Source: a virus | Lineage: Duplodnaviria > Heunggongvirae > Uroviricota > Caudoviricetes | Virus record (IMG/VR): IMGVR_UViG_2693429662_000023 | Location: 1 to 8,042 of that record | DNA: 8,042 nt | Direction: 5' to 3' (one strand) | In this document: positions 3,208 to 8,042 of the stretch, in pieces | Position numbering within the stretch: position 1 is the first letter of the stretch | Layout: every line of letters begins with the position of its first letter | Notes under the pieces: generated by a model | The model's database searches: none | The model's input: the letters and a program-made list of their open reading frames with translations, nothing else | What the model was told of the DNA's origin: nothing | Program-made: the position numbers and the translations under genes

Positions 3208-3507
3208 ATGAGAACATATTTATCTGGCTTGACTGCCAGCGGTTATGCACACCCCCAAATTATCCCCGGCGCTATTTATCTGGATAAGAACGGTAACAGA
3301 GTAACGGTAAAAGAACTGATGTTTGACCGTGTGTATTTTATTCGTGATGGCTATTCATTTCATAGTTCGCTGAACGTGGAGATCTTTATTAGCAGATTCA
3401 GGCGGGAAATCCCGCTTTCCAGAAAAAACCATGTGTCACGTGTGAATGTGGATAAAAAACTACAGGAACTGAAAAACATGATTGCCGCGTGGAGAGAGCA
3501 GAAATGA
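3208..3507 (+). CDS. Hypothetical basic protein (99 aa)
   Basis: ATG 3208 with GGGGA 9 nt upstream. Stop TGA 3505-3507 overlaps the primase ATG 3504 (ATGA overlap), suggesting translational coupling. Confidence 0.55.
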   Translation: MRTYLSGLTASGYAHPQIIPGAIYLDKNGNRVTVKELMFDRVYFIRDGYSFHSSLNVEIFISRFRREIPLSRKNHVSRVNVDKKLQELKNMIAAWREQK

Positions 3508-5321
3508 AAAAAGCGCCAAATTTAAAACACCAGCCGCGTGACAAAATGACGGAAGTCATCATTTTTGCGGGTAGTGATGCGTGGGCACATGCGAAGCAGT
3601 GGCAGGAACAGGACGGGCGACTGGCTGGCGATAACGTGCCTCCTGTCTGGCTTGGAGAGCAACAACTTGCCGAACTGGACAACCTGCAAATCGTACCGGA
3701 CGGACGCTATCGCGTGCGTCTCTATCAGGCGGGGTTATTGCGTCCGGGGCTTGTTAATACCATCGGGCAGAAACTGGCAGCGGCAGGTGTCAGGGATGCT
3801 GATTATTACTCTGAAGGAATGCACAGCCAGAAACGGGAGAACTGGCGCGAATATCTGGAACGTGAACGGGCAGAGCTGGCGGAAAAGAAAAAGGTAGTTG
3901 AACTGCCTGTAAAGAAAAAAGAGCGGGTAAAAGACGATAACGCTTCATCACTGGCGCTTAACCAGATGGGAGCAAGTCAACGCGGCGAAGTTCTCCTGGC
4001 ACATTATGGCGGTGAACTGGCGATTCATGCTGACTCTGACACTGTTCACCATTACAACGGCGTTGTATGGGAGCCAGTACAGGATAAAGAATTACAGCGA
4101 GCTATGGCACAGATTTTCATTGATGCGGAGATCAGCTATTCGCAGAACGCCATTAAATCGGCGGTCGATACCATGAAGTTAAGTTTGCCTGTAATGGGGA
4201 ATACAGCCCGTAACCTGATTGGATTCAGTAACGGGGTATTTGATACCAGAACAGGTAATTTTCGGGAGCATAACAAAAACGACTGGTTGTTAATTGCCAG
4301 TGAATTACCTTTCAGCCCACCAGCAGAGGGGGAAACGCTGGCAACACATGCGCCGAATTTCTGGAAGTGGTTACGCCGTTCGGTGGCTGAGAATGACCGC
4401 AAGGCGGATCGCGTACTGGCTGCATTATTCATGGTGCTGGCGAACCGGTACGACTGGCAGTTATTCATTGAGGTAACAGGTCCAGGGGGAAGTGGTAAAA
4501 GCGTGATGGCGGAGATTTGCACCATGCTGGCGGGTAAGGCCAACACAGTATCGGCAAGCATGAAGGCGCTGGAAGATGCAAGGGAACGCGCGTTAGTGGT
4601 TGGCTTTTCGCTGATTATCATGCCGGATATGACCCGCTACGCTGGTGATGGGGCAGGAATTAAGGCCATTACAGGCGGTGACAAGGTGGCAATTGATCCG
4701 AAACACAAAGCCCCCTACTCAACGCGTATTCCGGCAGTAGTGCTGGCGGTTAACAATAACGCCATGTCATTCAGTGACCGCAGCGGGGGGATCTCACGTC
4801 GTCGGGTGATATTCAATTTTTCGGAAGTTGTACCGGAGAACGAACGCGATCCAATGCTGGCGGAAAAAATAGAAGGTGAGCTGGCGGTAGTGATTCGCCA
4901 TCTGCTTACACGGTTTGCTGACCAGGACGAAGCCAGACGCCTGTTATATGAGCAGCAGAAATCTGAAGAAGCACTGGCGATAAAGCGAGAGGGGGATTCG
5001 CTGGTGGACTTCTGCGGCTATCTCATGGCGTCGGTAATGTGTGATGGCCTGTTAGTGGGTAATGCTGAAATTGTGCCATTCAGCCCACGCAGGTATCTCT
5101 ATCATGCCTATCTGGCTTATATGAGGGCACATGGGTTTGGTAAACCTGTAACACTGACGCGCTTCGGTAAAGATATGCCGGGGGCAATGGCGGAATATGG
5201 CAGGGAGTATATGAAACGGAAAACGAAGCACGGTTTGCGTTCAAACGTGACACTGACGGAGGAATCAGAAGACTGGATGCCATCATGTGTATCGGTCACT
5301 AATGACGATAGCAAAAATTAA
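3504..5321 (+). CDS. Replication protein: D5_N/primase-C-terminal-like domain fused to SF3 helicase (P4 alpha-like pri-rep)
   Basis: Start ATG 3504 with GGAGAG 7 nt upstream (the track's GTG 3489 is an alternative). Walker A motif GPGGSGKS encoded near 4480-4503. Upstream segment ...GFSNGVFDTRTGNFREH... resembles the D5_N region of P4-family primase/helicases. An iteron origin lies immediately downstream. Confidence 0.9.
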   Translation: MKKAPNLKHQPRDKMTEVIIFAGSDAWAHAKQWQEQDGRLAGDNVPPVWLGEQQLAELDNLQIVPDGRYRVRLYQAGLLRPGLVNTIGQKLAAAGVRDADYYSEGMHSQKRENWREYLERERAELAEKKKVVELPVKKKERVKDDNASSLALNQMGASQRGEVLLAHYGGELAIHADSDTVHHYNGVVWEPVQDKELQRAMAQIFIDAEISYSQNAIKSAVDTMKLSLPVMGNTARNLIGFSNGVFDTRTGNFREHNKNDWLLIASELPFSPPAEGETLATHAPNFWKWLRRSVAENDRKADRVLAALFMVLANRYDWQLFIEVTGPGGSGKSVMAEICTMLAGKANTVSASMKALEDARERALVVGFSLIIMPDMTRYAGDGAGIKAITGGDKVAIDPKHKAPYSTRIPAVVLAVNNNAMSFSDRSGGISRRRVIFNFSEVVPENERDPMLAEKIEGELAVVIRHLLTRFADQDEARRLLYEQQKSEEALAIKREGDSLVDFCGYLMASVMCDGLLVGNAEIVPFSPRRYLYHAYLAYMRAHGFGKPVTLTRFGKDMPGAMAEYGREYMKRKTKHGLRSNVTLTEESEDWMPSCVSVTNDDSKN

Positions 5322-6176: not shown

Positions 6177-6338
6177 ATGGCTATCACAGAACGCGAGGCA
6201 AGCATCATTAAAGCCATTGGCGAGGAAACAAGAGACACGATAGCGCCATTAATGGAAAAGATCGCAGAGCTTGAGAGACGAATAAACAAGCTGAGTGATG
6301 AAGTTGAAGGCCTGATCTCGTTACTCGGTGAGCAATGA
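6177..6338 (+). CDS. Small charged coiled-coil protein (53 aa)
   Basis: Not in the ORF track because it is under 60 aa. ATG 6177 sits 2 nt after the upstream stop, with GAGGA (6166-6170) 6 nt upstream. Translated by hand: MAITEREASIIKAIGEETRDTIAPLMEKIAELERRINKLSDEVEGLISLLGEQ, with a heptad-like hydrophobic pattern. Confidence 0.5.
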   Translation: MAITEREASIIKAIGEETRDTIAPLMEKIAELERRINKLSDEVEGLISLLGEQ

Positions 6339-6400
6339 CAGGGGGGGGGAGTGTTCCGGCCGGAAAGTCGATCGCCCTGGACACCGCCCCCCGTCTCATT
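6339..6400. promoter_or_regulatory. GC-rich palindromic element containing a second G9 tract
   Basis: G9 at 6341-6349 in the same CAGGGGGGGGG context as the tract at 2870. Perfect palindrome TTCCGGCCGGAA at 6354-6365 and CGATCG at 6369-6374. Arm GGGGGGGAGTGT is near-complementary to ACACCGCCCCCC (6381-6392). No T-run follows, so it is not a canonical intrinsic terminator. Confidence 0.4.
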
Positions 6401-6422
6401 CGTAGAAAATTTTGCTTTTCAA

Positions 6423-6445
6423 AAAAGTTACACGAAAAGTTACAC
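6423..6445 (+). repeat. Tandem direct repeat AAAAGTTACAC x2 (12-bp period) upstream of terS
   Basis: AAAAGTTACAC at 6423-6433 and 6435-6445, about 25 nt upstream of the terS ATG. Confidence 0.6.
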
Positions 6446-6467
6446 CCCCTCAAAACGAGGTTTTTGC

Positions 6468-6956
6468 ATGGCATTAACGACCAAAAAAAAGCGGTTTGCT
6501 GATGCGTTATCAAGGGGCGCAAATCCCACGGAAGCCGCTATACATGCGGGATACAGCGAAAAGACCGCAAGGGTCAAAGGCTGGCAGCTATCCAACGATC
6601 CTGAGGTGAAAAAGTATCTTAAGGCTGTAACTCCTGATGTAACTTTTCAGGTTACAAAACCGAAAAAAGTTACAAAGAAAGTTACCGAAAAAGTTACACC
6701 GGAACGGGCATCAATTAACACCATTGAGATGATGGATAACGGCCTACCCGACCCCATCAAAGCAATGGGCAGGATACTGATTGACAACATGGACACAGAT
6801 CCAAAACTGGCTTTAGATGCCGCGTTTAAGCTGGCCCAGTTCACCCACCGCAAGATCGGCAGCATTGGGAAAAAAGAGGTTAAAAAACTCAATGCCGCTA
6901 GTGTCTACTCAAATCGGTTCCCCATCCCTAAGCCACCAACAGACTTAAAACACTGA
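6468..6956 (+). CDS. terS: Terminase small subunit (P27/Terminase_2-like, N-terminal HTH)
   Basis: Start ATG 6468 chosen over the track's GTG 6351, which would translate the GC-rich palindrome. N-terminus MALTTKKKRFADALSRGANPTEAAIHAGYSEKTARVKGWQL matches the TerS HTH pattern (K.KRF...Y...N.T.AA..AGYS.KTA). Contains a KVTKKVTEKVT repeat insert. Confidence 0.75.
   Translation: MALTTKKKRFADALSRGANPTEAAIHAGYSEKTARVKGWQLSNDPEVKKYLKAVTPDVTFQVTKPKKVTKKVTEKVTPERASINTIEMMDNGLPDPIKAMGRILIDNMDTDPKLALDAAFKLAQFTHRKIGSIGKKEVKKLNAASVYSNRFPIPKPPTDLKH
6627..6697. repeat. 12-bp periodic GTAAC/GTTAC repeat array inside terS (candidate pac or TerS-binding site)
   Basis: GTAAC at 6627 and 6639. GTTAC at 6651, 6669, 6681 and 6693, with spacings of 12, 12, 18, 12 and 12 bp. 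Same core as the upstream AAAAGTTACAC repeats. Confidence 0.5.
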
Positions 6957-6967
6957 GGTAGCGAACT

Positions 6968-7129
6968 ATGAGCGAATACATCACAGACCCTATTGATGTA
7001 CTCACGGAAATCATGAACGACAAGCAGCAGTCGACCGAAATACGGTTACAGGCCGCCGCTGTTCTGATGCCATATTTTCACGAAACACTAAACCCGTGCT
7101 TCCAGGAGGAGGAAGAAGATGATCTGTAA
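6968..7129 (+). CDS. Small protein (53 aa) resembling the C-terminal segment of TerS, with acidic tail
   Basis: ATG 6968 with GAGG 9 nt upstream. Translated by hand: MSEYITDPIDVLTEIMNDKQQSTEIRLQAAAVLMPYFHETLNPCFQEEEEDDL. Aligns by eye with TerS residues DPIKAMGRILIDNMDTDPKLALDAAFKLAQFTH (shared DPI...I..D.......AA.....F.H). Overlaps the capsid gene start by 11 nt. Confidence 0.45.
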   Translation: MSEYITDPIDVLTEIMNDKQQSTEIRLQAAAVLMPYFHETLNPCFQEEEEDDL

Positions 7130-8042
7130 AAACATGAAAGGCGTGTCAGCAGTTCGCGCCGCCAGCGTGCTGGCATCGTGTAAATTTAGCCATGCTGACG
7201 CTATAGAGATGACGAAAAGAAATGATCCGGCAGTATCGTTATTTCTTGAAAAATCCGTAGTAGCAGGAATGAACACGGATAACATGCCGTCGCTGGTGGC
7301 AGAGCCGATAGTAAGAGAGCTTGGCGAGTATATTTTTTCGCAGTCTGTACCAGGCAAGCTAATCAGCAGCGCGCTAAATCTTCCTTTTGGCGCAAAATTG
7401 CAGTCAATATCAGGCAAGGGCAGTAAATGGCTTAAAGAAGCCGAAGAAATCCCTGTCAAAGAGGGAGAAGTAAACGAAAGTGCGCTAAAACTGTGCAAAC
7501 TTGGCGCTATTGTGATGCTGAATAACGAGCTAATCAAATTTAGCACCCCTGGTACAAATTCAGCGATCAGAGACTTGATCACATCGGAATCGGTGAAAGA
7601 AATAGATAAAAAATTTCTTTCCAGTGACCAGGAGGTGGCTGGCGTATCCCCTGAGGGCGTGCTTAATGGTGCTGATGAGGCCGAAAACTTCATAGAGCTT
7701 TTCAAAAAGCACATAGCGAACGGTAACACGCTTTCCACGTCGTCGCTAATCTTGCCCGTAGAAAACGCCTTACAGCTTACTGATGCTGAGTTCTGGCAGA
7801 TAGAGCTTTTGAGAATACCGGTAATTGTGAGCGAACAGGCGGATCGCATGATGCTGATAGACGCTCAAAAGCTGATTATTAACGTTGAAGCCACGGTTAT
7901 AACCCCAACTGATGAGGCGGTAATAAAAACCGAATCAGGGGCGGTTAGCCTTTTCCAGAATGACGCTACAGCGTTCAGGGCAATCACCTATTGCGGATGG
8001 CAAAAACTCGATAAGGCCGTCACCGTTCTGGCGAAAAGCTGA
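7119..8042 (+). CDS. Major capsid protein, HK97 fold (Phage_capsid family), 307 aa
   Basis: ATG 7119 preceded by AGGAGGAGGAAG. Internal motif EIDKKFLSSDQEVAGVSPEGVLNGA and C-terminal LFQNDATAFRAITYCGWQKLDKAVTVL match hallmark HK97-family capsid motifs (..ID.aFl.GdG...P.GlLN.. and ..F..D.tAfRa..R.......AfvvL). Stop TGA at 8040-8042 coincides with the window end. Confidence 0.7.
   Translation: MICKNMKGVSAVRAASVLASCKFSHADAIEMTKRNDPAVSLFLEKSVVAGMNTDNMPSLVAEPIVRELGEYIFSQSVPGKLISSALNLPFGAKLQSISGKGSKWLKEAEEIPVKEGEVNESALKLCKLGAIVMLNNELIKFSTPGTNSAIRDLITSESVKEIDKKFLSSDQEVAGVSPEGVLNGADEAENFIELFKKHIANGNTLSTSSLILPVENALQLTDAEFWQIELLRIPVIVSEQADRMMLIDAQKLIINVEATVITPTDEAVIKTESGAVSLFQNDATAFRAITYCGWQKLDKAVTVLAKS

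Follow-up and report, generated by a model that had tools for sequence, protein, structure and literature searches.

A 53-aa protein encoded directly downstream of the small-terminase gene (terS) in an Escherichia coli phage satellite is, based on sequence comparisons, a stand-alone paralogue of TerS that retains the hairpin only. The gene is linked to terS in phages as well as in satellites, and is not confined to the latter; from these relationships we infer a function in the assembly of TerS. It is labelled as a hypothetical protein by PGAP (NCBI; WP_000006076.1), as in all sources checked, and has no family in Pfam or NCBIfam. No description of a small TerS-like gene downstream of terS was found in the literature.

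The island and its packaging genes

The window, i.e. the whole stretch of viral DNA that was analysed (8042 bases), is almost the whole of a PICI-type phage satellite. The criteria used for this class were an integrase, an AlpA-type regulator, a primase or replicase, packaging genes, a size of ~8-15 kb, site-specific insertion and the absence of lysis and tail genes. The gene content of the island (int, alpA-like, DUF4222, primase, terS and capsid homologue), its size and its site of insertion all agree with this assignment. The features of the window are as follows.

1-1242: integrase.
1739-1945: AlpA-like regulator.
3208-3507: DUF4222 protein.
3489-5321: D5-type primase.
6424-6697, no strand assigned: AAAGTTAC, present six times without mismatch; two of the copies shortly precede the terS start and four are in the terS linker.
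6468-6956, plus strand: terS (162 aa), from PF03592 (E 1.9e-10), phrog_641 over its full length (E 3e-43), AF2 and Foldseek.
6729-6848, plus strand: hairpin segment of TerS, residues 88-127, paralogous to the small ORF based on alignments.
6955-6958, plus strand: GAGG, putative ribosome-binding site for translation of the small ORF; it shares bases with the TGA stop codon of terS (6954-6956).
6968-7129, plus strand: the small ORF (53 aa and stop), a stand-alone paralogue of the TerS hairpin, from the ORF call, phrog_641, hhalign, pN/pS and the PGAP annotation.
6989-7075, plus strand: predicted helix-loop-helix (AF2), with helix 1 at residues 8-16 and helix 2 at residues 23-36, equivalent to the TerS helices at 96-107 and 112-126.
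7082-7126, plus strand: acidic tail ETLNPCFQEEEEDDL, net charge -7 by charge count, predicted to be disordered from its low pLDDT.
7104-7121, plus strand: putative ribosome-binding site AGGAGGAGG and ATG of the capsid-homologue gene, within the tail codons of the small ORF; the genes overlap by 11 nt and the PGAP start is identical.
7119-8042, plus strand: capsid homologue (307 aa), HK97-type, the last gene of the island (PF05065, E 1e-6; phrog_617).

Two further small ORFs lie between the primase gene and terS. The capsid homologue corresponds to the capsid half of the protease-capsid fusion of the helper type, with 24% identity in a tblastn comparison with the head genes of Stx phages. An antisense frame of 253 codons is open opposite its gene (7088-7849, minus strand); nothing supports its status as a gene.

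In the E. coli chromosome the island is ~8.5 kb in length, is located between tRNA-Pro/yejM and yejO and ends directly after the capsid gene. The part of the window that contains terS, the small ORF and the capsid gene (6300-8042) is 99.9-100% identical to the chromosomal sequence. The terS-ORF-capsid block is present in 220 of 5426 complete E. coli genomes, with all three genes annotated each time, and its host lineages include the STEC lineages O157:H7, O55:H7, O26:H11 and O111:H8. The primase of the window (3489-5321) shares 47% identity with that of an otherwise near-identical island in strain Z1323HEC0108 (L001, 8204-9958), in which int is 100% and the terS-ORF-capsid block 99.9-100% identical to the window, and 76% identity with the primase of a metagenomic relative (L015). 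Based on these comparisons the replication module of the island is mosaic.

The island TerS consists of an HTH domain (residues 1-55), a disordered KKVT linker, a hairpin (residues 88-127) and a basic tail. In the AF2 model the HTH helices lie within residues 5-54, the disordered, KKVT-rich linker spans residues 57-84 and helices follow at residues 96-107, 112-126 and 135-146. A Foldseek search with this model revealed the small terminases of SF6, NV1, PaP3 and E217. The copies of AAAGTTAC in the linker, one of the four being inverted, encode the KKVT repeats, and relatives of the TerS differ by whole AAAGTTAC/KKVT repeat units. The six matches compare with 0.26 expected, and six were reached in none of 200 shuffles. 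The repeats are candidates for a site within terS at which TerS binds or packaging is initiated.

Among cultured phages, the closest TerS proteins (compared with L025, 4498-5061) are those of the Stx1a-, Stx2a- and Stx2c-converting and related O157 prophages. The island and Stx-prophage proteins share 46% identity overall, with 58% in the HTH, 22% in the linker, 72% in the hairpin (Stx2a phage) and 40% in the tail. The packaging modules of these prophages have the gene order HNH-terS-terL-protease/capsid fusion. The sequence relationships suggest that the Stx prophages are the likely helpers of the island.

The small gene and its relationship to TerS

The small ORF extends from an ATG at 6968 to a TAA at 7127-7129, with the GAGG sequence 9 nt upstream of its start. 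No terminator was found between terS and the capsid gene, and the small ORF and the capsid-homologue gene are, from their arrangement, probably translationally coupled. Comparison of two E. coli allele groups revealed 7 synonymous and 5-6 non-synonymous differences in the small ORF (pN/pS 0.18-0.21), which is comparable to its neighbours (mostly 0.15-0.3 for the capsid gene and 0.2-0.9 for terS). The amino acid changes are in the inter-helix loop (S22P) and the tail, with one exception, a pig isolate in which helix 2 carries the conservative change V32I. A representative set of 1.84 billion proteins yielded ~15 stand-alone relatives of 49-68 aa, with the consensus DPxDFLLxVMNDxxxPxxxRLEAAxALMPYFH followed by an acidic tail, as well as proteins of 99-160 aa that carry the hairpin. 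Orthologues with 50-60% identity to the small ORF exist, and among those with 40-60% identity the residues of the helices are conserved. Based on these sequence data the small ORF is a real, conserved gene.

A BLASTP comparison of the small ORF with the adjacent TerS gave no match. In a Smith-Waterman alignment, residues 1-48 of the ORF align with TerS residues 88-137 with a score of 41, compared with 23.3 +/- 4.1 in 20,000 shuffles (p = 0.0026); the two hairpins are ~24% identical. The small ORF matches positions 89-125 of the 162-position profile of phrog_641, a TerS family (E 3.5e-7), as do four other members of the small-ORF family (E 1e-7 to 1e-10), although a helix-loop-helix with 'R..AA.AL' resembles HEAT repeats, so that the profile signal is partly generic, a caveat that bears also on the functional reading favoured below. 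In hhalign comparisons the family gave an E value of 0.009 with close relatives of the TerS and, with a broad TerS alignment, a probability of 97.1% and an E value of 5.2e-11 over 52 columns (ORF 1-49, TerS 86-138). The higher score of the broad alignment is explained by the many full-length TerS proteins whose motif is almost that of the small ORF, including those of Burkholderia phage Bcep176 (DPKAFLIAAMNDSRTEPKLRIDAAKALMPFVH; DPKAFLIAAMND...RIDAAKALMPFVH), Salmonella phage FSL SP-016 and many IMG/VR phages; the island TerS itself has drifted away from this consensus.

Of the weak tblastn matches in cultured phages, 20 of 24 are within genes annotated as TerS; of the motif matches in IMG/VR, 64 of 73 are inside full-length TerS and the other 9 are stand-alone ORFs. 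A scan of genome contigs gave two loci only, one of them within a full-length TerS, and a word-indexed protein search gave near-identical E. coli copies only. HEAT-repeat proteins, which matched over multiple stretches in the representative search, were regarded as look-alikes and set aside; the small ORF is a single hairpin and no HEAT model matched it at E <= 1. As the profile and alignment matches agree, the small ORF is a homologue of TerS and the resemblance, at the sequence level, is not due to chance.

In the AF2 model of the small ORF, 26 residues have a pLDDT of at least 90, while the tail is of low confidence. A profile search of the PDB (E <= 10) gave residues 81-101 of the NV1 TerS (E 0.013) and an artificial alpha-repeat protein only. 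A Foldseek search with the 53-aa model gave nothing significant, the top match being the NV1 TerS (E 3.1). In TerS proteins of the PaP3/NV1/SF6 type, the oligomerisation core is made up of helices alpha4-alpha5 and one strand; in the nonameric PaP3/NV1 structures these helices span residues 64-105 (PMC7672466). Because the part of TerS matched by the small ORF corresponds to this core, the small protein is, on the alignments and the predicted structure, a copy of the ring-forming hairpin and not of the DNA-binding domain or the extreme C-terminus.

Terminase_2/phrog_641 TerS proteins (SF6/SPP1 G1P-like and, structurally, PaP3 and NV1) share with the small ORF the core helix-loop-helix, as seen with hhalign, phrog_641 and NV1, and the motif DPxDFLxxxMND...RxxAAxALMPYxH. 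The small ORF differs from them in size (53 compared with 145-190 aa) and in the absence of the N-terminal HTH and the linker; for the small ORF, AF2 predicts a pair of helices followed by a tail, and there was no match to the Pfam model for Terminase_2, which covers TerS residues 3-53. It also differs in its tail, which has a net charge of -7 in place of the basic GKKE...AAKKA...F...PPP. The same hairpin module is found in the uncharacterised phrog_15261 proteins (~99 aa) and in small phage proteins of the DUF5681 type (E 6e-6 for the ORF), which unlike the small ORF add a basic N-terminal arm with GRPxG and extra C-terminal residues. A possible precedent is SPP1 G1P*, an N-terminally truncated TerS translated from an internal start. 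It would be a form of TerS that lacks the DNA-binding domain and is present beside the full-length protein; G1P* would come from the same gene and frame, whereas the small ORF is a separate, diverged gene with an acidic tail.

The tails of the small-ORF family have a net charge of -3 to -8 in 15 of 17 members, with or without overlap with the next gene, although the tail sequence itself is poorly conserved. By contrast, the TerS tails downstream of the conserved ...LMPYFH have a net charge of +5 to +7. The explanation that the acidic tail is a mere by-product of the AGGAGGAGG ribosome-binding site of the capsid gene was rejected, since relatives whose tail does not overlap with the next gene have acidic tails as well. 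A variant with a basic tail (...HVSKEKSRAFRRHPNPS) was observed in 26-53 kb viral contigs and one 5.3 kb contig (L084-L087, ~4959-5153), and may be a frameshifted allele. In a metagenomic protein of 268 aa (P0028), two hairpins are arranged in tandem, with acidic residues after the first and a basic tail after the second; as a fusion found in nature, it gives a hint that such hairpins can lie next to each other.

These results can be compared with those of an earlier, sequence-only reading of the window, which had noted an ORF wedged between terS and the capsid gene and, by eye, its resemblance to the C-terminal part of TerS. The position is correct, and the resemblance is significant in both pairwise and profile alignments. 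The likeness to TerS and the register of the alignment also stand, but the match is to the central hairpin, and the extreme tail is inverted in charge. The description of the protein as a free copy of a TerS segment holds, and because that segment is the one that holds the ring together in the solved TerS structures (PMC7672466), association with a TerS is the natural expectation.

Distribution of the small gene in phages and satellites

In all relatives examined the small ORF is directly 3' of terS, with a spacing of 0-18 nt, regardless of which gene follows. In satellites, namely a Salmonella element, three metagenomic elements and this island, the next gene encodes a capsid homologue (~310-320 aa). 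The small ORF is also found as the terminal gene of an island with the order int-capsid-terS-ORF, and in TerL-bearing elements it is followed by terL. The last arrangement is exemplified by a 55-kb viral contig with the gene order holin, HNH, terS, small ORF, terL, portal, protease and capsid, beyond which are genes for a head-tail adaptor, head closure, neck, tail terminator and major tail protein. Judged by its gene content this contig is certainly a complete tailed phage. In the TerL-bearing group to which it belongs, the start codon of the small ORF is immediately after the terS stop codon. The possibility that the TerL-bearing elements are capsid-forming PICIs was rejected for at least one of them, which has holin and tail genes; the gene order of the proteobacterial cf-PICIs differs from that of the TerL-bearing phage element (10.1101/2022.09.08.507074).

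The sequence-only reading had suggested that the small protein could associate with the TerS of the helper phage or of the satellite and alter packaging specificity, as in the hijacking of helper packaging by satellites. A role as a satellite device is not supported, given the presence of the same gene between terS and terL in a complete phage, in other TerL-bearing elements and in a Hafnia alvei prophage. In the Hafnia prophage (L002, L003, 8486-8631) an in-frame TAG replaces the codon for Gln21, identically in two independent assemblies. Either the codon is suppressed, allowing readthrough, or the small ORF of this prophage is a pseudogene.

Six TerL-bearing elements, at least one of which is a complete phage, were compared for mosaicism. 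TerL is 90-97% identical in every pair. TerS is of two types, with 31-40% identity between types and 67-84% within them, and the small ORF tracks the TerS type (39-52% between, 50-72% within). As the small ORF diverges with the TerS type whereas TerL is uniform, the exchange boundary is between the small ORF and terL and, on this comparison, the small ORF belongs to the terS cassette. The satellites have kept terS and the small ORF and have lost terL. Since the small ORF is found in phages and tracks the TerS type, the satellite would have inherited it together with terS.

The small ORF is absent from the Stx phages, FSL SP-016 and Bcep176. It is also absent from a related E. coli island (L004, 6206-8281; L005), which has an HNH gene before terS and a gap of 103 nt in place of the small ORF. 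The TerS and the capsid homologue of this island are 63% and 52% identical, respectively, to those of the window, which by contrast has the small ORF and no HNH gene.

In three related satellites (L006, 3386-4789; L016, 3914-5338; L017, 2195-3583) the capsid homologue, their last gene, is followed directly by a phage terL without its first 77-85 codons; in L006, genes for a protease-capsid and a portal protein come next. One satellite is seen in circular or tandem form in L014 (1-1620), where it matches its integrated counterpart (L015, 3709-4260) up to ~20 nt inside the terL-homologous stretch. Because the shortened terL follows the capsid gene and the latter match ends in the terL stretch, satellites of this type appear, from their sequences, to integrate site-specifically into the terL of prophages.

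Possible function of the small protein

The small protein may be regarded as a 'mini-TerS', i.e. a small-terminase paralogue cut down to the oligomerisation hairpin and a short acidic tail, with no HTH, which would form part of the terS cassette in HNH-type (HK97-like) packaging modules. It is probably produced with TerS from one transcript by coupled translation. The hairpin would pack on TerS subunits, either by insertion into the ring or as a cap, and the resulting mixed assemblies would have fewer DNA-binding and basic-tail arms. This could tune the assembly of terminase on the packaging site or the hand-over to TerL. In the island, the protein tuned would be the island's own TerS, which must work with the TerL and HNH of the helper. 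We give about an even chance to this reading, in which the small protein joins or caps TerS-type rings via its hairpin and so alters the number of DNA-binding and basic-tail arms. Two observations count against it. The low identity (~24%) between the hairpins of the small ORF and the island TerS means that co-assembly is not guaranteed, and the gene is dispensable in some lineages, as seen in the HNH-terS-capsid E. coli island, the amber codon of the Hafnia prophage and the Stx phages.

In pac-type SaPIs, the satellite has its own TerS paired with Ppi, which binds the TerS of the helper phage, not that of the satellite, and blocks phage packaging (PMC6739421). By description, the small protein resembles Ppi in being a satellite-encoded protein that would work with the satellite's own TerS (PMC6739421; 10.1101/2022.09.08.507074). 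A protein of this kind would bind the helper TerS via the shared hairpin and poison its ring, thereby favouring packaging by the island TerS. The presence of the island in STEC lineages, together with the finding that Stx prophages hold the closest cultured-phage TerS, is consistent with such a role, and a ring-forming hairpin that lacks the DNA-binding domain is a plausible dominant-negative subunit. Unlike Ppi as described, however, the small ORF is not restricted to satellites, and in the complete phage and the other TerL-bearing elements, where its orthologue is between terS and terL, there is no helper to inhibit. Furthermore, the hairpins of the helper and island TerS are 72% identical to one another, whereas the small ORF is ~24% identical to that of the island and by eye similarly far from that of the helper. 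Being about equidistant from both, it has no visible basis for sparing the island TerS, and nothing in the sequence suggests that it discriminates between helper and self. We consider a Ppi-like role improbable.

The E. coli cos-type PICIs also have a small protein, Rpp of EcCICFT073, that complexes with a TerS and changes what is packaged (PMC6739421). Rpp itself binds DNA and replaces a satellite TerS, whereas the small ORF lacks a DNA-binding domain and is encoded beside a TerS that belongs to the island itself. The identification of the small ORF as Rpp was rejected on these grounds, and the profile search of the PDB gave no match to Rpp.

The acidic tail is the second conserved feature of the family, and could be the part that acts. 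As a mimic of DNA or of a TerS tail, it would engage TerL, HNH or the basic tail or linker of TerS, with the protein serving as a chaperone or release factor and the hairpin involved in self-oligomerisation only. The strongly basic character of the TerS tails and linker is in agreement with this, as is the finding that the tail of PaP3 TerS is acidic and that the C-terminal tail in P22 is essential for the binding of TerL and DNA (PMC7672466). A partnership with TerL or HNH is difficult to reconcile, however, with the divergence of the small ORF along with the TerS type while TerL stays constant at 90-97%, and with the retention of the gene in satellites that lack TerL and, in the case of this island, HNH. 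Given also that the sequence of the tail is poorly conserved, a different partner seems to us a rather remote prospect. Finally, it is very unlikely that the small ORF has no function as a protein and is a decaying TerS fragment, or a spacer frame that couples the translation of terS to that of the next gene, as its overlap with the ribosome-binding site and start codon of the capsid gene and its loss or interruption in some relatives might suggest, because purifying selection on it is as strong as on the neighbouring genes, its helix residues are conserved at 40-60% identity and in at least 15 stand-alone relatives, its tail is acidic also where there is no overlap and its hairpin is confidently predicted by AF2.

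The reading of the small protein as a component of TerS-type rings can be extended beyond this island. We tentatively propose, with more doubt than conviction, that a family of HK97-like, HNH-dependent phages, together with its derived satellites, makes use of a third terminase-associated subunit not recognised before, a TerS paralogue of ~50 aa with an acidic tail and no DNA-binding domain that would co-assemble with TerS rings and set the number of arms or the release of TerL. In STEC, mixed rings with the Stx-phage TerS could then bias packaging towards the island. Of the parts of the phage packaging motor, the small terminase is understood least (PMC9611059), and a natural, conserved TerS that is reduced to its core would offer a direct way to study the control of packaging initiation by the assembly and subunit composition of the ring. 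As the island is found in STEC lineages and the TerS proteins closest to its own are those of Stx prophages, the small ORF could affect the mobilisation of the island or the release of Stx phages.
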